Assembly (NCBI GenBank): GCA_951406725.2
Contig: OX597837.1
Span: 37,820,001 to 37,884,000, forward strand
From: Octopus vulgaris
Taxonomy: Eukaryota
DNA: 64,000 nt
Direction: 5' to 3'
Under the pieces are notes generated by a model. It was given only the letters and a program-made list of their open reading frames with translations, had not been told where the DNA came from and did not search any database. The position numbers and the translations under genes were made by a program. Shown one piece after another: positions 1,292 through 57,971 of this stretch (the first letter of the stretch is position 1; each line of letters starts with the position of its first letter).

Positions 1292-1925
1292 TATTTCTTT
1301 ACTGGCCACAAGGGGCTAAACACAGAGGGGACAAACAATGACAGACAAACGGATTAAGTCGATTACATCGACCCCAGTGCGTAACTGGTACTTAATTTAT
1401 CGACCCCGAAAGGATAAAAGGCAAAGTCGACCTCGGCGGAATTTGAACTCAGAACGTAGCGGCAGACGAAATACCTATTTCTTTATTACCCACAGGGGTT
1501 AAACACAGAAGGGACAAACAAGGACAGACATAGGTATTAAGTCGATTACATCGACCCCAGTGCGTAACTGGTACTCAATTTATCGACCCCGAAACGATGA
1601 AAGGCAAAGTGGACCTCGGCGGAATTTGAACTCAGAACGTAACGGCAGACGAAATACGGTTACGCATTTCGTCCGGCGTGCTAACGTTTCTTATTTCTTT
1701 ATTGCCCACAAGGGGCTAAACACAGAGGGGACAAACAAGGACAGACATGGGTATTAAGTTGATTACATCGACCCCAGTGCGTAACTGGTACTTAATTTAT
1801 CGACCCCGAAAGGATGAAAGGCAAAATCGACTTCGGCCGGAATTTGAACTCAGAACGTAGCGGCAGACGAAATACTGCAAAGCATTTCGCCCGGCGTGCT
1901 AACGATTCTGCCAGCTCGCCGCTTT
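1292..1925 (-). mobile_element. SINE family B trimer inserted into the head of a degenerate family A SINE
   Basis: Three tandem units starting tatttcttta at 1292, 1476 and 1692; head ends at ccagctcgccgc; flanked by direct repeat gttagtcatacc (1280-1291, 1929-1940). Confidence 0.9.
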
Positions 1926-6615: not shown

Positions 6616-7035
6616 TGTTTCTTTACTACCCACAAGGGGCCAAACACAGAGAGAACAAACAAGGACAGACAAACGGATTAAGTCGATTATATCGACCCCA
6701 GTGCGTAACTGGTACTTAATTTATCGACCCCGAAAAGATGAAAGGCAAAGTCGACCTCGGTGGAATTTGAACTCAGAACGTAGCGGCAGACGAAATACCT
6801 ATTTCTTCACTACCCACAAGGGGCCAAACACAGAGAGAACAAACAAGGACAGACATAGGTATTAAGTCGATTATATCGACCCCAGTGCGTAACTGGTACT
6901 TAATTTATCGACCCCGAGAGGATGAAAGGCAAAGTCGACCTCGGCCGGAATTTGAACTCGGAACGTAACGACAGACGAAATACGGCTACGCATTTCGCCC
7001 GGCGTGCTAACGTTTCTGCCAGCTCGCCGCCCTTC
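6616..7035 (-). mobile_element. SINE family B dimer
   Basis: Two units joined at gaaatacc|tatttc; flanked by agcaagacagtatc / agcaagaacagtatc. Confidence 0.9.
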
Positions 7036-8566: not shown

Positions 8567-8811
8567 TATTTCTTTATTGCCCACAGGGGGCTAAACATAG
8601 AGGGGACAAACAAGGACAGACAAAGGGATTAAGTCGATTATATCGACCCCAGTGCGTAACTGGTACTTATTTAATCGACCCCCGAAAGGATGAAAAGCAA
8701 AGTTGACCTCGGTGGAATTTGAACTCAGAATGTAACGGCAGACGAAATGCCTATTTCTTTACTACCCACAAAGGGCTAAACACAGAGAGGACAAACAAGG
8801 ACAGACAAACA
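8567..8811 (-). mobile_element. SINE family B, one unit plus a partial unit
   Basis: Junction gaaatgcc|tatttc at about 8752; no head. Confidence 0.85.
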
Positions 8812-8859
8812 GGTTAAAAGCTGTGCACCTTCTGATTGCCTTACATAAACTTTCAGACA

Positions 8860-9080
8860 TATGAGGGGGTGCTGAAAAGTTCCTGGCTTTAGGGGTACTG
8901 TGGAAGGTCTGGTTGGAGACCCAACCTTCTGAGTTCTTTTACAGGGCTTAGAAAAACTGAAGGACCACTGCAATAATTGTGTGAATCCGAGAGGGGAAGA
9001 TGTTGAATAATATCATAATTAAGTGATCCTTTAGTGTTTTCTTTCACCCCCAAACCAGGAACATTTCAGAGCCCCTCGTA
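8860..9080 (+). mobile_element. Mariner-derived MITE
   Basis: Ends tatgagggggtgctgaaaagttcctgg / ccaggaacatttcagagcccctcgta; the interior encodes a mariner-like C-terminus (FFTGLRKLKDHCNNCVNPRGEDVE*). Confidence 0.8.
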
Positions 9081-20840: not shown

Positions 20841-21243
20841 ATTCTTTTCTACCCTAGGCACAAAGCCCGAAATTTTGTTTGGTGGTGGGGCAGTCGATTA
20901 GGTCGACCTCAGTACTCAACTGGTACTTAATTTATTGACCCCAAAAGGATGAAAGGCAAAGTCGATCTCGGCAGAATTTGAACTCAGAACGTAGCGGCAG
21001 ACGAAATACCTATTTCTTTACTATCCACAAGGGGCTAAACACAGAGGAGACGAACAAGGACAGACAAACGGATTAAGTCGATTATATCGACCCCAGTGCG
21101 TAACAGGTACTTGTTTAATCGACCCCGAAAGGATGAAAGGCAAAGTCGACCTCGGCGGAATTTGAACTCAGAACGTAGCGGCAGACGAAATACCGCTAAG
21201 AATTTCGTCCGGCGTGCTAACAATTCTACCAGCTCGCCGCCTT
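20841..21243 (-). mobile_element. Hybrid SINE B/C dimer
   Basis: C-type tail unit (aggcacaaagcccgaaatttt) joined at gaaatacc|tatttc to a B unit with a full head. Confidence 0.85.
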
Positions 21244-22194
21244 TCGTCGTCGTGGCCATCATCATCATCGTCGTATTCTTCTTCTTCTTCTTCTTCTTCT
21301 TCTTCTTCTTCTTCTTCTTCTTCTTCTTCTTCTTCTTCTTCTTCTTCTTCTTCTTCATCATCATCATCATCATCATCATCGTCATCATCATCTTCTTCCA
21401 TTACGAAATGCGTAACCATAAACATAAATAAAAGCAGGAAGCACCCACCACCACCATCACCACCACCACCACCGCCCGTTCATTCTCATCCCCGCCCCCA
21501 CCATTTATTGCTCAACGTTCAAATGGTACACCAAACAAAAACCCAACGAACTAATAATCCCTATTTAAAGCCTCTCCAAGAACAAAGTTCATTGAGTGAA
21601 GAACGCAACGCGAAGATGCCAAAAACTGTAAAAGTGGCTTGACGTTTTTACGGCCGAGCAAAGTAGTGTCTAAGGACAATGGTCATTCGCTGAGAGACAG
21701 AGAGAGAGAGAGAGAGAGAAGAAAAGAGAGTGAGGGAGAGTGAGAGGGAGGGTGGGTGGGAGGAAGAGGGGGAGTAAATCTGGCAGTGAAAATGGTAAAT
21801 GGTTCCAAGATGGCAGTTGCCAAAAACGTTGTCGGTTAAAGAATTTGCTTAAAAGGTTGAATATTCGTCGAGTAGAAGAATTTCTACAGTCTTTATGTCT
21901 TTGGACAGAAACAGAGCAGCAGCAGTAGTAGTAGTTATTGTCGTTTAAACCCCAGGTCGGTTCGGATCGAGCAGACCGATGTATGTATGTATAATTGAAA
22001 ATGTCGACTGGTAACAAGTGGGTGTATGTATCTGTGTGTGTATATTTGTATGTATGTATGTATGTACGTAGGTATATATATATATGTATGGGTGTATGTG
22101 TATGTGTGTGTATGTATGTATGTATGTGTGTATGTATGTATGTGTGTATGTACGTGTGTGTATGTATAACTGAAGATGTCGACTTGTAGCAACA

Positions 22195-22249
<55 letters not shown>

Positions 22250-22698
22250 TGTATGTGTGTGTATTTATGTGTGTATTCTTTTTCTAATTTAAATTCTGAC
22301 CGGCCCCTTGGTTGGTGAAGAAAACCATCTGGTTTTGTTTATTACCCTTTAAATCACGGGTTCTCACCCGGGGTCTATTTAAGATACTTTGGGGCCCCAA
22401 AAAGTAGAATAGCCGAATGGAGGTACACAACAGTATTTTAGGAATCCATGAAAAATATTTGCTTTAAATGTCTTTTATTGGAAAAAAAACCCCAAAAAAC
22501 AACCAGGGTTCTGTCTCTAAGGTTTTGCGTAGCTTAACAGGTTTCTGGCCCCTGAAACATGTTCATGCAAGGAACAATAGCAAACCTACACGAGGCGTGG
22601 TTGTGTGGCAAGAAGATTGCTTCCCAACCACATGGTTCCGGGTTCAGTCCCACTGTGTGGCACCTTGGACAAGTGTCTTCTACTTATGTATTAATCAT

Positions 22699-23166
22699 AA
22701 GGTGGTGAGCTGGCAGAGTTGCTAGCACGCCAGGCGAAATGCTTAGCTGCATTTTGTCCGTCTTTACGTTCTGAGTTCAAATTCCACCGAGGTCGACCTT
22801 GCCTGTCATTCTTTCTAACTCGATAAATTAAATACCATTTATGCACTGGGGTCGATGTAATCGACCTATCCCCTCCTCACAAATTTTTCGGGCCCTGTGC
22901 CTAGAATAGAAAGGATTATTTTGTATTAATACCAGTTACGCACTGGGGTCGATATAATCGACATAGTCCATTTGTCCTTGTTTGTCCCTTCTGTGTGTAA
23001 CCCCTTGTGGGCAGTAAAGAAATAAGAAAGGATTATTTTGTATTAATACCAGTTATGCACTGGGGTCGATATAATCGACTCAATCCCTTCTTTCTGCCCT
23101 TGTTTGTCCCCTCTGTGCGTAGCCCCTTGTGGGCAGTAAAGAAATAAGAAAGGATTATTTTGTATT
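22699..23166 (+). mobile_element. SINE C followed by two SINE B 3' fragments, inserted after a family A head (22592-22683)
   Basis: Head aaggtggtgagctggcagag; agaaaggattattttgtatta occurs three times, separating the fragments. Confidence 0.85.
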
Positions 23167-23794
23167 ACTCATGAATTATCTCATAGCTTCAAGGTTTCGA
23201 TGATGGGATTGTTTATTTTTAGAATAACATTGTAGGGCAAGTGAGAGAGGCCAGATCTGGACAGTCTGAACATAAATCAGCTAGAATATATTGGGCTGGA
23301 TGTGAACGGTTTAAAGGCTAAAGGGCTAAATCTCTCCCCTTGTACTCACAAGATCATATAAAGGAACCCCCATTTTGCCCACTTGTATTGAAGATCGTAA
23401 TCTTTCGATCATTGTCAAGCGTTCATGACTATAGGTGAGTATAGACACAAAAGCCAAATCAAAGACAACGAATTCGGTTCTTTTTCTTATTTTTACCATT
23501 CTTTCGTCTTCTGAGAATCAAATACTGGAATTGGCGCATTTCTGGACCCTTATTTTCCAATGTGTCCTTCTCATTTAAGAAGACTAGGTTTGTGAGAGAT
23601 TTGATCGCGATTTCTACCCTGTAAAATAGCAATGTAGAAGTTCCCTCGTTGAAGTTTGCTTCCCAACCACATAGTTTCGGGTTCTGTCCCGCTGCGTGGC
23701 ACCTTGGGAAAATGTCTTTTATTATAGCCTTTGGGCCGACCAAGGCGTTGTGAGTGGATTTGGTAGACGGAAACTGAAAGAAGCCCATCGCACA

Positions 23795-29919: not shown

Positions 29920-30312
29920 CTACTCTATGTACAAGGCCCGAAATTTTGGGGGAGGGGGCCAGTCAATTAGATCGACCCCACGCAACTGGTACTTAATTTA
30001 TCGAATCCGAAAGGATGAAAAGCAAAGTCAACCTCGGCGGAGTTTGAACCCAGAACATAAAGACAGACAAAATACCTATTTCTATTTCTTTACTACCCAC
30101 AAGGGGCTAAACACAGAGGGGACAAACAAGGACAGACAAAGGGATTAAGTCGATTATATCGACCCCAGTGCGTAACTGGTACTTATTTAATCGCCCCCGA
30201 AAGGACGATAGGCAAAGTCGACCTCGGCGGAATTTGAACTCAGAACGTAGCGGCAGACGAAATACAGCAAAGTATTTCGCCCGGCGTGCTAACGTTTCTG
30301 CCGGCTCGCCGT
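29920..30312 (-). mobile_element. Hybrid SINE B/C dimer
   Basis: C tail unit, junction aaatacc|tatttctatttc, then a B unit with head. Confidence 0.85.
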
Positions 30313-30879
30313 CTTTTTTTGTACCTAATATTATAACTGCACTGCGCTTCTGTATGTAACGAACAAATTTGCATAAGGTTCTAGAAACGGTAGCATTCTC
30401 CAACAAAGGACAAATCAAACCGTTTCTTATTCTACAAGCAGAATCGATTAGTGGTACGGTTAGGATTTGTGAAACATTCCAGGGATTCTCCATTTGAGGT
30501 ATCTGATCGGAATAAGCCCATACAATCACATGTGCATATGGCATATACATAGACACACATATAACCGGAAATGCAGCTCATGCGGCTCAGAAGTGCAAGT
30601 TTATCCACTCACAAGCAAATTCACACATACACAAACAACTGGAGTTGTTTTGTCAAAAAGGAAAAATCCTTGTCACTTTGTTAGCGACCAGTTTGGAATT
30701 TTGCAAGGAAAGAAAGTTAGATAAATTTCAAACACACAAACATATATACAAATATAAACAAATATATATATATGGAATGTATACACGCACATACACATGT
30801 CTATAGAAAATACATATCAGATAAAGAATCCAAGGAAACTGGTAGTGGTCTGCGTTGGTAAGATTTGTGTGATTGAGGA

Positions 30880-34537: not shown

Positions 34538-34756
34538 TGTTGTTGCTGTTTCATCCTCAGGTGAACCCTGGTTGAGTAGACGTACGGAGAAAAGCGCTCC
34601 AGCTATGCCCTTCCCGTCATTTTTGTATATCACAGACTTCTAAAAACAGAAGGAGCAGGAGGTGAGAAAAAACATTTGGCTGCTATTTCTAACAAAACGA
34701 ACCAAAACCACGTGGCTGCAAGCGAGCTTCTCAACCACATAGTCACTCCTATATTG

Positions 34757-34967
34757 GTTTCAAATTTTGGCACAAGGCCAGCAATTTTGGAGAAGGGGTT
34801 AAGTCAATTACTTCGACTCTAGTGTTCAACTGGTACTTCATTTATCGACCCCGAAAGGGTGTAAGGCAAAGTCGACCTCGACGGAATTTGAACTCAGAAC
34901 GTAGAGACGGACGATATACTTCTAAGCATTTTGCCCGGTGACCTAACGATTCTGCCAGCCTGTCGTC

Positions 34968-36310: not shown

Positions 36311-37035
36311 GATACAAGTGAGTTGTGTATGTATGTGTGTCAAATTTGTCTCTCAAGGTAAGTTTCACCAAATGAAACCAAATGAACATCTCACACACAT
36401 CCTGTCAATGTCACACAATTGTGTGTGTGTGTAGGTGTGTGTGTGTGTGTGTATATATATGATGTGTATGGGCATGTGTATATTGGCGGTGAGGGTAGGA
36501 TGTCGGGGAAGAAAGGTCACAGTAACGGACATCCGCTTGCTGCCATATATGGTAACAGTTGGAGGGAAAATGGCTAGCCTACTCACATACACACAAGCGT
36601 ATACACGTTCACCCCCCCACACATTCAATCTCTCCATATGTCTGTCTGTCTGTCTGTCTATTCGTCGGTCCGTCCATGTATCTGGTTCATCTACAGATTC
36701 ACGCAATATCTTAGTAACTTCAAACATACCGCCTGTCTGTTCGTATCCCTATTGATCAACCCCCCTCTTTTTTTAAAAATTTTACCCCCCCCTTTTTTGT
36801 CCTCTTTCTTTCCTTTTACGATCCCTTTTGATCGAAAACCAAACCGCTTTTTTTTATCCCCAAAATAAAAGCTCTACCTTGTAATTTGTCCTGTCTGTGT
36901 GCAGCCCTGTGTGGCTAATAAAGAAACATATCTATCTATCTATCTATCTATCTATCTACCTATCTACCTATCTATCTATCTATCTATCTACCTATCTACC
37001 TATCTACCTATCTATCTACCTATCTACCTACCTAC

Positions 37036-38422: not shown

Positions 38423-39586
38423 ATACATACATATAACATTCATATGCACATACATGTAACATACATACATACATACATACACACATACATGCATACATAC
38501 ACACATACATATAAATACATATAGCATACATACACATACATATAACATATATACATACACACGCACACATACATACATACATACACACATACATACAAAC
38601 ACACATACACACATACATACATACAAACATACATACACACATACATACATACATACATACACACATATAACATACATACGTACATACATACATACACACA
38701 TACACACATATACACATACATACATACAAATATGCATACGTACACACATACATAAATACGCACACACATACATACAAATATACATACATACACACATACA
38801 TACATACATACATACATACATACATACATACATACATACATACATACATACATACATACATACATACATACATACATACATACATACGTACGTACGTACG
38901 TACGTACGTACGTACATTTTAAATGGAGAAATAGCGCGATGACGTAACGCAAACGATTCTCTCCTTTCTTATTCGCCAATTCGCTTGAAAGAGAATCAAG
39001 TGTGACCTAGAGTTAAGAAGAGGACCAGAATAATTGAATAAAAGAATACAAAATCGTATAGTAATATATGAATATAAGAATAACAGATTAAGAGAATAGA
39101 AATAAGCGAAACACTTACATTTTACTCGGATTCTCTGAGTCTATTGATTTTTTTTGGTTTTCCACCATTATAAGTTGGTCTGGCATCGATTAGCGACTCA
39201 GACCTGAAATGTCAGCGAAATGCCAATGACATTTGATGGGAAACGCTAAGACTCTTAGAGGTCAAATGTTTGGCTCTCTGCCATCAAATAGTCCACGCTG
39301 ATACTCCCTCTGCGCATGCACGTGGATGTAGACGTACGCATGCACTCTGGTCTTTGCGCGCGCACATACACGCACGTACGTACACGAACGCGAAGCCTAA
39401 ACACATTCACAGTCAAGCACGTAAACGCATACATACACAAATAAACGCACACACACTCACGCAGTCGTTTAAGATTTTAATGTATTTGTTTAAAATATGT
39501 AGAGTATCATAAAAATATTGGATAAATATATTTACTCTGTGTGTTGAAAAGATGGTGTGTAGATGTTGACAAGATAGGTAGACACA

Positions 39587-40457
39587 CTGTGTAGATTTTG
39601 ACTGTATTGATAGACGCAGTGTGTAGATGTTGACTGTATTGACAGACGCAGTGTGTAGATATTGACTATTGACAGACACAGTGTGTAGATGTTGACTATA
39701 TTGACAGACGCAGTGTGTAGATGTTGACTGTATTGACAGACGCAGTGTGTAGATGTTGACTGTATTGACAGATGCAGTGTTTAGATGTTGACTGTATTGA
39801 CAGACGCAGTGTGTAGATGTTGACTTATTGACAGACGCAGTGTGTAGATGTTGACTATACTGACAGATGCAGTGTGTAGATGTTGACTGTATTGACAGAC
39901 GCAGTGTGTAGATGTTGACTATTGACAGACACAGTGTGTAGATGTTGACTATATTGACAGACGCATTGTGTAGATGTTGACTATATTGACAGACGCAGTG
40001 TGTAGATGTTGACTGTATTGACAGACGCAGTGTGTAGATGTTGACTGTATTGACAGATGCAGTGTATAGATGTTGACTGCATTGACAGATGCAGTGTGTA
40101 GGCGATGACTGTATTGACAGACGCAGTATGTAGATGTTGACTGTATTGACAGACGCAGTGTGTAGATGTTGACTGTATTGACAGACACAGTGTGTAGATG
40201 TTGACTGTATTGACAGACGCAGTGTGTAAATGTTGACTATACTGACAGACGCAGTGTGTAGATGTTGACTGTATTGACAGATGCAGTGTGCAGATGTTGA
40301 CTGTATTGACAGATGCAGTGTGTAGATGTTGACTGTATTGACAGACGCAGTGTGTAGATGTTGACTCTATTGACAGACACAGTGTGTAGATGTTGACTGT
40401 ATTGACAGACACAGTGTGTAGATATTGACTGCATTGATAGACGCAGTGTGTAGATGT
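39587..40457 (+). repeat. 32-bp minisatellite, about 27 copies
   Basis: Unit gtgtgtagatgttgactgtattgacagacgca with occasional 30-bp variants. Confidence 0.95.
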
Positions 40458-42106: not shown

Positions 42107-42179
<73 letters not shown>

Positions 42180-42180
<1 letters not shown>

Positions 42181-42478
42181 CCTTTCAACTTCAGGCACAA
42201 GGCCTGGAATTTGTAGGGAGGGGGATAGTCGATCACATCGACCCCAGTACTCAGCTTGTACTTAATTTATCGACCCCGAAAGGATGAAAGGCAAAGTCGA
42301 CCTCGGCGGAATTTGAACTCAGAACGTAGCGGCAGAGGAAATACCTATTTCTTTACTACCCACAAGGGGCTAAACACAGAGAGGACAAACAAGGACAGAC
42401 AGACGGATTAAGTCGATTATATCGATCCCCAGTGCGTAACTAGTACTTATTTAATCGACCCCGAAAGGATGAAAGGCA
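42180..42478 (-). mobile_element. Hybrid SINE C plus truncated B unit
   Basis: Junction gaaatacc|tatttc at about 42345. Confidence 0.85.
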
Positions 42479-42690
42479 ACAACAACAGCAACAGCAGCAG
42501 CGGCAGCAACAACAACAACAACAATAATAATAATGGTTTTCAAATTTTGGCACAAGGTCAAAAATTTCGGGGTAAAGATGATCCTTTAAACCGACGCCAG
42601 TGCACAAATGGTACTTATTTTATCAACCTCTCTATAACTTCTGCAGATTATTATTTAAAAATGTATAACACACACACACACACACACACA

Positions 42691-49700: not shown

Positions 49701-50595
49701 AGTACGGTAAATGTAGTAAGACAAGAGTGACGGGTATTTTAAGTCTAGAGAAGAGAAAAGTAACGAGGTCCCAGAAGCATAAGAAACCATTGCTAGCGGG
49801 GTTTTAAAATATGAAGGACAGAGTACACTGGATAATGTATGTAGTTGTAGATATTAGTATGGTTAAATACCATATTGGATGGGTATGATTGGATCGTCAC
49901 ACTCTTGACCATAGGTCTGCAGTAAAATGATAAAAAACAAAACAAAACAAAAAACAGCAAAAACGATAAAATAAAGTAAACAGCACTCTACTGCTGCAGC
50001 ATCAGTGGTAGGTTGCTGTTTCGTTACAGAAATAAACACGTTTTGTACTTACATGAATCACTAAGTGATCATACTGGCGCTGCTCTCTCAGGTTCTGTTG
50101 GGTATCTGTAGTACACACGTTCACACAAGTCCACACACTACATATACGTATATACATTTATGTATATAAATGTATATATACATATATATGTATGGTGATT
50201 TGCTTGCTTGTCGGCGCTGTGTGTCGATGATCGGTATTGTGAGACCCAGCTCTGTATCATATCATAGAGTCCTCTCCATACTTCCTGGAAACAAGCAAAA
50301 CAAAGGCAAAATATTAATTAAAGATGCAAAAATAGACACGTATGTGAGTTTGTACACACACACAGACACACACACACAAGCATGTATATGCAATCGTATA
50401 TATATATATATTTCTCTCTCATACACTCGCTCTATCTCTTCCTTTCTCTGTCTGTCTGTCTGTTTCTGGATATATATTAACGAACGCATAAGTATAATAA
50501 TTTACATTCATAAATTTGACAAATTAAGGCGGTGCTCCAGCATGGCCGTAGTCAAATGACTGAAACAAGTGAAAAAATAAAAGAGTAAAAATATA

Positions 50596-52272
50596 TATTT
50601 CTTTATTGCCACAAGGGGCTAAACATAGAGGTGACAAACAAGGCCATACAAAGGGATTAAGTCGATTACATCGACCCCAGTGTGTAACAGGTACTTAATT
50701 TATCGACCCCGAAAGGATGAAAGGAAAAGTCGACCTCGGCGGAATTTGAACTCAGAACATAATGGCAGACGAAATACCTATTTCTTTACTACCCACAAGG
50801 GGCTAAACACAGTGGGGACAAACAAGGACAGGCATATGTATTAAGTCGATTACATTGACCCCAGTGCGTAACTGGTACTTTATCTATCGACTCCGAAAGG
50901 ATGAAAGGCAAAGTCAACCTCGGCGGAATTTGAACTCAGAACGTAACGGCAGACGAAATACCTATTTCTTTACTATCCACAAGGGGCTAAACATAGAGGG
51001 GACAAGCAAGGACAGACAAAGGGATTAAGTCGATTATATCGACCCCCAGTGCGTAACTGGTGCTTAATTTATCGACCCCGAAAAGATGAAAGGCAAAGTC
51101 GACCTCGGCGGAATTTGAACTCAGAACGTAACGGCAGACGAAATACCTATTTCTTTATTACCCACAAGGGGCTAAACACAGAAGGGACAAACAAGGACAG
51201 ACAAACGGATTAAGTCGATTAGATCGACCCCAGTGCGTAACTGGTACTTAATTTATCGACCCCGAAAGGATGAAAAGCAAAGTCGACCTCGGCGGAATTT
51301 GAACTCAGAACGTAACGGCAGACGAAATACCTATTTCTTTATTACCCACAAGGGGCTAAACACAGAGGGGACAAACATGGACAGACAAAGGGATTAAGTC
51401 GATTATATCGACCCAAGTGCGTAACTGGTGCTTAATTTATCGACTCCGAAAGGATGAAAGGCAAAGTCGACCTCGGCGGAATTTGAACTCAGGACGTAAC
51501 GGAAGACGAAATACCTATTTCTTTACTACCCACAAGGGGCTAAACACAGTGGGGACAAACAAGGACAGGCATATGTATTAAGTCGATTACATTGACCCCA
51601 GTGCGTAACTGGTACTTTATCTATCGACTCCGAAAGGATGAAAGGCAAAGTCAACCTCGGCGGAATTTGAACTCAGAACGTAACGGCAGACGAAATACCT
51701 ATTTCTTTACTATCCACAAGGGGCTAAACATAGAGGGGACAAACAAGGACAGACAAAGGGATTAAGTCGATTATATCGACCCCCAGTGGGTAACTGGTGC
51801 TTAATTTATCGACCCCGAAAAGATGAAAGGCAAAGTCGACCTCGGCGGAATTTGAACTCAGAACGTAACGGCAGACGAAATACCTATTTCTTTATTACCC
51901 ACAAGGGGCTAAACACAGAAGGGACAAACAAGGACAGACAAACGGATTAAGTCGATTAGATCGACCCCAGTGCGTAACTGGTACTTAATTTATCGACCCC
52001 GAAAGGATGAAAAGCAAAGTCGACCTCGGCGGAATTTGAACTCAGAACGTAACGGCAGACGAAATACCTATTTCTTTATTACCCACAAGGGGCTAAACAC
52101 AGAGGGGACAAACATGGACAGACAAAGGGATTAAGTCGATTATATCGACCCAAGTGCGTAACTGGTGCTTAATTTATCGACTCCGAAAGGATGAAAGGCA
52201 AAGTCGACCTCGGCGGAATTTGAACTCAGAACGTAACGGCAGACGAAAATACCGCTAAGCATTTCGCCCGGC
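50596..52272 (-). mobile_element. SINE family B nonamer array
   Basis: Nine units of about 184 bp (starts at about 50597, 50779, 50963, 51148, 51332, 51516, 51700, 51885, 52069), one partial head, 16-bp flanking duplication aaagagtaaaaatata. Confidence 0.95.
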
Positions 52273-52663
52273 AAAGAGTAAAAATATAATTGCGAAACGT
52301 AAAACTAAAGCGTAGATTCAGCTGACATTTTAAACGAAGTTATTTCGGTAGTTTGTTTCGAGGGAAGTCTGTCTGCGCGTTTATATACGTATGTGATTAT
52401 TTTCAAGTCCACGCATTTGTTATGAATGAATGCCTTGCTTTTGTTGCTAAGTGCTGTCTGTTTGTCTGTCTGGTTCTATGTCTACATGTATGTTTGTATG
52501 AATGTATGTATGTAGTGTCGGATTTAGGACAAATGAGGCCATATTCTAGTTAATTTGTGAGGCCCCTTACTTGGATAGGTGCGCCGTTGACCAGGGGCTC
52601 CTTACAGTGCCCCCTGGTCAACAGGACCCTGTGCTTAAGCACACCCAAGTACAATGGTAAATC

Positions 52664-52894
52664 CGGCGAGCTGGCAGAATCGTTAGCACGCCGGGCGAAA
52701 TGCGTAGCCGTATATTTCGTCTGCCGTTACGTTCTGAGTTCAAATTCTGCCTAGGTCGACTTTGCCTTTCATCCTTTCGGAGTCGATAAATTAAGGACTA
52801 GTTACCCACTGGGGTCAATGTAATCGACTTAATCCGTTTGTCTGTCCTTGTTTGTCACCTCTGTGTTTAGCCCCTTGTGGCCAGTAAAGAAATA
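52664..52894 (+). mobile_element. SINE family B monomer
   Basis: ggcgagctggcagaatcgttagcacg head, B-box-like gagttcaaatt, ends taaagaaata. Confidence 0.9.
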
Positions 52895-56560: not shown

Positions 56561-57354
56561 TTCTCTCTCAATACAACACCTTTTACCACTACCTTCTCTC
56601 TACTTTGTCTGATAAAGAGAGCCGCTGCATAGTCCCTCGATCTGCTAGAAATAGTAGCTGAATTGCCCTCAAAATCAATGACGTCCTGCATTTCCTTCAC
56701 ACAGGAACTCTTTTCTCTGTGGTTTCAGCGACTGGAATGCCTTTGATCATCGAAACGTCTGCTCAATTGGAGCTAACCTGGGGCTATACAATAACATCTC
56801 ACTCTCTCTCTCTCTTTTCTGTTATATCACCTTTTCTCTTTCTTTCTCTCTTTCTCATTTTACTCTTTAACATCCCTCTCTACCACACAACCTCCCACCA
56901 CCACCACCACCACTACCACCACCACCACCACCACCACACTTCTATCCACCTTCTCTCTCTCTATTACATCACCTCTCACCACTACCTCTCTCTATATAAC
57001 ATTACCTCTCACCACCACTATCATTACCATACGACCATCGCCACCGCTGCGCTGCTTCTGCCACCACCATCGCCACACTTCTGTCCAACACCTCTCTCTA
57101 TTTACACTACCTCTCACCACTACCACCGCCACCTACTCTCTTCTTCAATTGACGAATTAACGTATAAATGGTCGTTTAACATGTTAGAAATAACAGCTAA
57201 ACTTAGGTCAAATCACACCTTTCTGTTCATAAACTAAAATAAAGGACAGACACTCGGCATAATTTTGTTTTTAACGAGCCAATCGATTGATTGGTCAAAT
57301 GATTATGAAAGCAATCGATTACTTCATTAATCGATTAAGCAATAATAATAATAT

Positions 57355-57877
57355 TCCTTTCTACTATAGGTAACACGCCTGAAATTTTTGGAGAAGAGTA
57401 AGTCGATTAGATCGACCTCAGTATTTAACTGGTACTGATTTTATCGACCCCCGAGAGAATGAAAGGTAAAGTCGACCTATTTCTTTACTACCCACAAGGG
57501 GTTAAATACAGAGGGGACAAACAAGGACAGACAAAGGGATTAAGTCGATTATATCGACCCAAGTGCGTAACTGATACTTAATTTATCGACCCCGATAGGA
57601 TGAAAGGCAAAATTGACCTCGGCAGAATTTGAACTCAGAACGTAACGGCGGACGAAATACCTATTTCTGTATTACCCACAAAGGGCTAAACACAGAGAAG
57701 ACAAACGGATTAAGTCGATTATATCGACCCCAGTGCATAACTGGTACTTTTTTAATCGACCCCGAAAGGATGAAAGGCAAAGTTGACCTCGGTGGAATTT
57801 GAACTCAGAACGTAACGGCAGACGAAATACCGCTAAGCATTTTGTCCAGCGTGCTAACTATTCTGTCAGCTCACCTC
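57355..57877 (-). mobile_element. Hybrid SINE array: partial C, two B units, head
   Basis: Junctions gtcgacc|tatttc (about 57477) and gaaatacc|tatttc (about 57661). Confidence 0.85.
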
Positions 57878-57971
57878 TTTATTACACTTAGAATATTGAA
57901 AACAAGCCAAATAAGGGAAATAAAAAAATACCCCAAAACAAAACAAAAAGGAAAGAAAATTATTTGGATGT

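Follow-up and report, generated by a model that had tools for sequence, protein, structure and literature searches.

We analysed a 64,000-nucleotide stretch of Octopus vulgaris DNA (assembly GCA_951406725.2, contig OX597837.1, positions 37,820,001 to 37,884,000 of the forward strand), hereafter the window, and focused on a tandem array of a short interspersed element (SINE) at 50580-52288. The window is microsatellite-rich, non-coding eukaryotic DNA. Read on the minus strand from 52288 to 50580, the array consists of a target-site duplication (TSD), a 19-bp head remnant (52272-52254), nine headless units and the second TSD copy. Its parts are as follows.

50580..50595, minus strand: TSD, the copy at the 3' end of the array; equals 52273-52288 and has no further copy in the window at up to two mismatches.
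50596..50778, minus strand: terminal unit S9, with a C-type tail and no GGTA after the tail; the most diverged unit, with 15-22 differences from the other units and 3/11 CpG decayed.
50779..51515, minus strand: units S5-S8, a 737-bp block with T-type tails and 5 differences from S1-S4.
51516..52253, minus strand: units S1-S4, which are distinct from one another, have T-type tails and derive from different source copies; 8-16 aligned sites distinguish neighbours.
52254..52272, minus strand: 5'-truncated head remnant with the 5' arm and loop of the head hairpin and without the A box.
52273..52288, minus strand: TSD, the copy at the 5' end of the array; equals 50580-50595.

A first-pass annotation had described nine tandem headless units with one partial head, and our analysis confirmed this, with unit lengths of 185, 184, 185, 184, 184, 184, 185, 184 and 183 bp. 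The 16-mers at the two ends were identical, as had been claimed, and the 16-mer occurs just twice in the 64-kb window, even with up to two mismatches allowed; the probability of such a pair arising by chance was about 8e-8 (base composition, 30 offsets). The internal junctions were also uniform, all eight reading GAAATA followed by GGTATTTCG. All nine units end in a full tail, and a T4 run was present in six of the nine and absent from the majority unit. Unit S9 is likely the founder of the array. The target site of the array is itself the 3' end of another dispersed repeat (50526-50598), for which the window has nine further matches, at 83-92% over 32-73 bp. About 390 bp from the array, with its head facing that of the array, lies a full monomer on the plus strand (52660-52894); a transcript spanning both could form long double-stranded RNA.

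The family comprised 34 BLAST pieces at 14 loci in the window, with a monomer of about 235 bp, and contigs from sequencing runs contained 33,026-416,396 SINE-matching pieces per run. The element is short, interspersed, of high copy number and non-coding, as expected of a SINE. No open reading frame resembling a reverse transcriptase (RT) was noticed by eye among the 109 long reading frames of the window, and no partner long interspersed element (LINE) was seen in that list. A head and core are common to element A, whose tail ends in AAAGAAATA, and element B, which carries a different tail after the core; a C-like form related to B lies at 34735-34965. The head carries A-box-like and B-box-like motifs and a D-arm-like hairpin. 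The head had been called tRNA-like in the first-pass annotation. The features behind this description are the two box-like motifs alone; ARAGORN found 0 tRNA genes, and no tRNA was among nine Rfam matches (E≤10) in a region with a full head. Known RNA families and ribozymes were considered and rejected, as Rfam gave just microRNA and long non-coding RNA chance matches below gathering scores. Exact motif searches for OK/OR1/OR2 or Meta/CORE/V/Deu identity found nothing in the paper supplements searched; the family may be of octopus-like origin and may have a Meta-like core. A tail about 79% like the SINE tail lies at 36885-36926 on the plus strand, after unrelated pyrimidine-rich sequence and before a (TATC)n run, and is possibly another element using the same LINE.

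The head hairpin reported in the first-pass annotation proved real. It has 11-12 bp and a 4-nt loop; among its 11 consensus pairs, one was changed on both sides in 2/9 heads, and the outer pairs formed with a probability of 0.81-1.0 in the four heads folded. As DNA, the hairpin has a free energy of -6.5 to -7.9 kcal/mol. This long hairpin is not a canonical anticodon arm. The junction between units lies at the first base of its 3' arm, next to the 4-nt loop, so headless units retain the B box and lose the A box. Two 5' truncations fall at the hairpin, one at its base (52272) and one at its loop (about 58937). TSDs of 12-21 bp were found at 50580, 1292, 6616 and 22697 (inner and outer), and none was clear at the other loci; TSDs with 5' truncation are typical of target-primed insertion. 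The first-pass annotation had further proposed that each junction rebuilds a hairpin gaaata-gg-tatttc. The complementarity it rests on is present, but the hairpin as written has a 2-nt loop, and with a 4-nt loop it has 5 bp and -1.4 kcal/mol. In a 200-nt context it formed with a probability of 0.01-0.13 at all five junctions tested, which speaks against the idea that it drives joining.

All seven further junctions listed in the first-pass annotation exist. Four are exact (1475, 6799, 21010 and 57661) and three carry small changes: GGCA at 8752, GGTATTTCC at 42345, and an extra GAAATA followed by GGTATTTTG at 30077. The claim of a recurrent fixed junction instead of a single accident therefore held, with seven window loci and the contigs of a second species described below. 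SINE-into-SINE joints also occur at other positions (1692, 57478, 23024/23146). The loci concerned, with the monomer mentioned above, are as follows.

1292..1925, minus strand: trimer made of a C-type unit joined to a head at AGAAA (1692), a T-type unit, the fixed junction (1475) and a CC-type last unit; the outer TSD starts GGTAT and matches at 14/15 positions.
6616..7033, minus strand: dimer with the fixed junction (6799); the outer TSD starts GATAC and has one indel.
8567..8817, minus strand: 5'-truncated T unit, the junction in its GGCA variant, and a C-type last unit; head and TSD not found.
20843..21243, minus strand: head, T unit, fixed junction (21010) and a headless B-family copy with its different tail.
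22697..23167, plus strand: full B-family copy whose tail received a 5'-truncated C-type unit at AGAAA, unit and TSD then duplicated; the 21-bp TSD is visible.
29920..30315, minus strand: head, T unit, slipped junction (extra GAAATA) and a headless B copy.
42177..42479, minus strand: 5'-truncated T unit, fixed junction (42345) and a headless B copy; no head upstream.
52660..52894, plus strand: monomer with a CC-type tail, ending in unique DNA at GGTAC, without a clear TSD.
57352..57880, minus strand: B-like head, T unit, fixed junction (57661), T unit, off-register junction at GGTC (57478), and a B remnant with a B tail.

Several of these loci showed further features. At 22908-23167 the order is TSD-unit-TSD-unit-TSD with a period of 122, the truncated C-type unit in the B tail having been duplicated between its TSDs. 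Both units at 6616-7033 share private variants in their last 45 bp and differ in subtype upstream, which suggests local gene conversion. The first units of the four multimers ending in B (21011-21194, 30083-30266, 42346-42479 and 57662-57831) share a TTAAA-form core variant absent from the nine-unit array, which suggests an older burst or a composite A-B source. Upstream of the locus at 8567, at about 8860-9080, lies an element of about 220 bp with inverted ends, which looks like a mariner-type miniature inverted-repeat transposable element. An apparent 11-bp TSD for the same locus, about 200 bp upstream, was rejected as a chance match sitting inside this element. Elsewhere in the window, a 32-bp minisatellite at 39555-40457 has about 28 copies with 91% matches.

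We then compared tail subtype with the bases that follow the tail. The window contains 24 A-tail ends, which the base about 13 from the end divides into 17 T-type, 2 CC-type and 5 C-type. A G followed the tail in 19/19 T/CC ends, 15 of them at the fixed junction and the rest at GGTAT, GATAC and GGTAC in unique DNA and at GGTC inside a SINE core. In C-type ends it followed in 0/5, the continuations being AGAAA three times, TATAT and AATAT. With the four block-copy ends and one duplicated C end left aside, the counts were 15/15 versus 0/4 (Fisher P = 2.6e-4), and by locus 9/9 versus 0/4 (P = 1.4e-3). Three T/CC ends lie in unique DNA. At two of them the TSD copy on the upstream side likewise begins with GGTAT (1292) or GATAC (6616), indicating that the motif was already present in the target when the element arrived; at the third (52894) no TSD is clear. 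The C-type joins at AGAAA involve a head (1692) and a B tail (23024), and the 21-bp TSD visible at the latter directly documents insertion of one SINE into another by microhomology. In the simplest view, the RNA of each subtype extends beyond GAAAUA into a sequence peculiar to that subtype, and priming takes place where this extension finds a match in the target. With T/CC tails, this run-on sequence is the start of the next unit. Because the GGTA continuation is tied to the tail subtype even in unique DNA, the junction appears to be inherited in the template, and the view that the hairpin gives rise to every junction afresh was not borne out.

The four-base match is insufficient on its own. 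GGTA makes up 0.25% of window positions, and the site within the SINE takes 11/15 independent T/CC ends but accounts for 19/321 GGTA sites (P = 3e-11), so longer pairing, recopying of multimers or both must be added. A nuclease of the partner LINE with a preference for GGTA sites or for the head hairpin, the run-on RNA having no role, could in principle create such a hot spot; insertion-site preference builds tandems of transposable elements in Drosophila (10.1101/158386; here and below, the cited papers are drawn on in part), and the head hairpin can also be folded as DNA, with the free energy given above. This explanation, however, would require that C-type copies, which differ by few tail bases and presumably use the same LINE, also end at G, which they do in 0/5 cases, and the Drosophila tandems have varied internal junctions (10.1101/158386). 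We therefore regard it as extremely improbable.

Comparison of the array units with each other revealed a block copy. S1-S4 differed from S5-S8 at 3, 0, 2 and 0 positions (5 over 737 bp, as assembled), whereas neighbouring units of the array showed 9-22 differences and S9 was unique. The array thus consists of five distinct units and one block copy; the count of nine stands, but nine one-by-one additions are not supported. The first-pass annotation had named near-identical units from unequal crossing-over as the contrary case, and this was found in part, for the four block-copied units, with a TSD present around the array. Among the variants of S1-S4, 19/28 were also present at other loci, and for the five distinct units 27/41 recurred elsewhere, against a background of 121/552 possible substitutions seen (22%). 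Apart from the block copy, the arrays are not homogenised, as divergence was 7.4% within loci (15 pairs) and 8.7% between loci (105 pairs), counted without block copies, truncated units and B units. Adjacent units at fixed junctions (10 pairs) had 8-21 differences and were never near-identical. Neighbouring units therefore come from different source copies, which excludes a circle of one monomer at this locus, in agreement with the earlier argument that differing neighbours disfavour it.

These data bear on a possible spread at the DNA level. In this view gene conversion, unequal exchange or circular DNA hands one founder junction from copy to copy among the many homologous elements, no RNA is needed for arrays to grow, and tail subtype and junction go together because both descend from a founder dimer. 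The 737-bp block copy with its five differences, the private variants shared at 6616, the duplication of unit and TSD at 22697 and mosaic-looking units speak for it, and this route was proposed for SINE arrays of reptiles (PMC10702118) and bivalves (PMC11481361). Alone, however, it does not explain why T/CC ends in unique DNA have TSDs that begin with GGTA-like bases, nor does it explain the off-register GGTC join at 57478 or the slipped tail at 30077, and it is at odds with the unhomogenised arrays. The 737-bp periodicity also stops within 15 bp of the junction, for which random unequal exchange offers a chance of about 8% (15/184 positions). We consider it rather unlikely.

The position of the block and of the junction could instead point to RNA that is cleaved at the edge of the loop and then ligated, so that RT copies circles or concatemers, the four-unit repeat representing two laps of a 737-nt circle. 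Junction and loop edge coincide exactly, bases 3-8 past the junction are the complement of the final 6 nt of the tail, the block is repeated with no shift of register, and a circle would also provide the run-on GGUA for priming. But the absence of near-identical neighbours (10 pairs) and the variants shared with other loci exclude the monomer circle, end pairing had a probability of 0.002-0.30, and a circular fold was no better than shuffled sequences in 4/4 headless units. The hammerhead core motif CTGANGA was absent from both strands, and Rfam gave no ribozyme. The loop-edge fit and the 6-nt complement are the reason why this route, although very improbable, keeps a small share. A broader version, in which ribozyme-free cutting at the loop edge and ligation yield circles or concatemers, two laps of a 737-nt circle yield the block, and junction RNA steers new copies into old ones, would make the element a self-targeting, self-polymerising SINE; we hold this to be quite improbable.

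The reading we favour, which we judge to be about evenly poised between right and wrong, is that RNA with a T/CC tail runs on into GGUA(UUUCG...), primes on matching older SINE heads and stacks headless units within the founder's TSD, with multimers also recopied in blocks. This run-on matches the 3' arm of the head hairpin of the SINE itself. A single founding join of tail to head would first have created the junction. RNA polymerase III (Pol III) would then read through multimers that bear a head, producing junction-bearing RNA, which the lack of a T4 run in the majority unit would permit. A putative partner LINE would prime just 3' of the tail, with the RNA pairing to nicked DNA over a short match in unique DNA and a long one in SINE heads and earlier junctions. 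The other cDNA end would anneal in register to homologous upstream sequence, leaving no inner TSD and no second head. Finally, retrotransposition or unequal exchange would copy multimers again as whole blocks. The position of the junction would thus be inherited and self-reinforcing, and not chosen again by the hairpin.

Several observations are in line with stacking of this kind. The last unit belonged to the B family in 4/8 fixed-junction multimers and was C-type in 2/8, and B tails never preceded the fixed junction at the window loci. At 57880-57352, a B-like head and a B tail flank two A units. Fresh priming seems to lie behind two irregular joints, the slipped tail at 30077 and the off-register join at 57478; at 30077, B-specific bases right after the slipped junction place the event at the junction. 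CpG decay was higher in last units (14/83 versus 8/126, P = 0.02).

Other observations weigh against it. The CpG test is weak, because units are not independent and B copies may differ by family, and by locus it gave four for, two against, one tie and one not testable. In two of the eight multimers (8567 and 42177) the first unit is 5'-truncated, and the 480-620 bp upstream contain no founder head; stepwise insertion without deletion does not predict such multimers, which fit copying of a multimer in one event. An inner TSD or doubled head at the fixed site was found in 0/8 multimers, which means that the in-register annealing step must be near-obligate. The heads of 6616, 29920 and 1292 lack the first G of the target, the T4 run in six of the nine array units could stop Pol III, the private 3' variants common to both 6616 units suggest conversion at the DNA level, and the monomer at 52660 lacks a clear TSD. 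The model also leaves the exact founding join at the loop edge unexplained; the loop-edge fit and the 6-nt complement of tail end and 3' arm may have helped that join. The evidence on mechanism comes from one window and small counts.

The truncated multimers follow directly from template switching within one RT event, in which the head hairpin of one SINE RNA halts RT and copying resumes on a second RNA whose tail or run-on matches the cDNA end, so that the multimer is inserted at once. One outer TSD around units of different source also follows directly, the strong head hairpin and the 5' truncations at it (52272, about 58937) suit stalling, and the link to tail subtype is compatible. RT is generally expected to stall at the base of a stem and not at its loop, however, which does not agree with the junction. 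Switching would also have to start on a B-tailed RNA and then move exclusively to A tails, and at least four switches in one event would be needed for the array at 50580-52288. It predicts units of equal age, whereas the last units look older, a weak point. We consider it unlikely, although template switching and DNA recombination may act together with stacking. Among the three models put forward in the first-pass annotation, self-insertion into older copies fits best, template switching is still in play, and the circle is excluded at this locus in its monomeric form.

We next looked for the junction in other sequence data. One monomer (21011-21245) was compared with four of 24 sequencing runs, and the statements on joints refer to the best 15 of 626, some joints being uncounted in X4 and X15. 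The joint from 21194 to 21011, which corresponds to the fixed junction, was the best-supported row in DNA contigs of organism B, the second species, among the joints listed; it occurred in at least 36 contigs, and in at least 89 over five rows within a few bases. Organism B also had 1,344 loose ends at 21194, whose consensus is the SINE tail. In contigs of organism A, guessed to be from RNA, the joint occurred at least 5 times and at least 9 times over rows, with 138 loose ends; among raw DNA reads of organism A, 1 of 14 matching reads had the joint, and 14 matches in 12.9 million reads are too few for a frequency. In organism E the SINE was present (216,817 matching pieces), but the joint was found 0 times, and twice over rows, among the joints listed, and 21194 was not among the six loose-end rows listed. 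Other joints exist with lower support than 21194 to 21011. Several recurrent joints in organisms E and B begin at 21177 or 21243 and either return by 45-168 bases or change strand; they are probably nested or internally duplicated B-family copies. These results demonstrate that the junction is widespread and lineage-dependent, and its strength in B and near absence in E are as expected for an inherited subfamily trait. Contigs carry no information on RNA ends or circles. Exact-pattern scans for further loci gave 0 matches in viral contigs, metagenome contigs and prokaryote genomes.

SINE multimers are already known. In Scapharca broughtonii, TSD1-(SINE)n-TSD1 arrays have 4-15 units and one TSD pair (PMC11481361). 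They resemble the present array in that single pair and in a first unit with a head followed by units whose heads are truncated at one position; there, however, first and inner units are tail-truncated and the last alone is complete, attributed to internal duplication (PMC11481361), whereas here all nine tails are full. Here, in addition, neighbours come from different sources, last units can belong to another family and the junction recurs at many loci. The SINE-derived satellite (sSat) of squamates likewise has units shorter than the SINE, a longer terminal unit, the same borders across snake loci, higher-order dimeric and trimeric patterns and a unit near nucleosome length (PMC10702118). 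It is defined by at least four short middle monomers and a longer terminal unit; the present array has seven middle units and a head-bearing first unit. The homogeneity of long sSat loci was lacking here (7.4% versus 8.7%), a soft difference since short sSat loci vary too. The squamate arrays are treated as DNA-level duplications, the terms 'TSD' and 'target site' are absent from the main text, and no link to tail subtype or priming motif is reported in the parts covered (PMC10702118). Full-length multimers of up to eight SINEs, such as Dip/B1 in jerboa, are cited in the same paper; frequent insertion of SINEs next to SINEs and mixed multimers are shared with our loci, but the jerboa units are full-length and joined at tails (PMC10702118), and ours are headless and joined at one internal base.

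Precedents also exist among other retroelements. For SART1Bm and R1Bm, the proposal is that short RNA 3' of a recognised stem-loop, or downstream target sequence, pairs with the nicked target and thereby determines where RT starts (PMC7265360), a precedent for priming at short target-like RNA motifs. Those elements are autonomous LINEs with site-specific nucleases (telomeres, rDNA) (PMC7265360), whereas the present one is a non-autonomous SINE that would target its own head. Bov-B and Sauria SINEs have 3' repeats linked to different landing bases (PMC13295347). In Drosophila, tail-to-internal tandems of elements without long terminal repeats (non-LTR) also arise by repeated insertion, and a few old junctions can rise in frequency (DMRT1B), but their junctions vary with 5' truncation at single loci (10.1101/158386), in contrast to one junction over many loci here. 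Non-LTR retrozymes have short tandem units and proposed circular RNA intermediates, but carry a hammerhead in each repeat and a link to Penelope-like elements (10.64898/2026.07.22.740005); no hammerhead was found here (no CTGANGA, no Rfam ribozyme). Such arrays are unmentioned in the covered parts of two octopus repeat papers (PMC13282606, PMC9115989). A fixed, subtype-linked junction was not described in the literature searched, with subscription papers, Repbase and Dfam outside that search, and supplements or Repbase entries may already contain the family, perhaps as a dimeric consensus.

For this abundant family, counting headless units and block copies as independent monomers gives wrong copy numbers, ages and consensus sequences. 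The interesting part of the finding is the subtype-linked, self-matching run-on, which can be tested from the assembly alone. Two near-identical tail subtypes with different landing motifs would constitute a natural experiment on RNA-DNA pairing versus nuclease in the choice of site. If the favoured reading is true, the inheritance of a junction was enough to give a SINE subfamily a target preference of its own. Its run-on RNA would point at its own family, a feedback that would turn dispersed SINEs into tandem arrays by retrotransposition and not by unequal exchange alone, providing a concrete, testable route from SINE to satellite.

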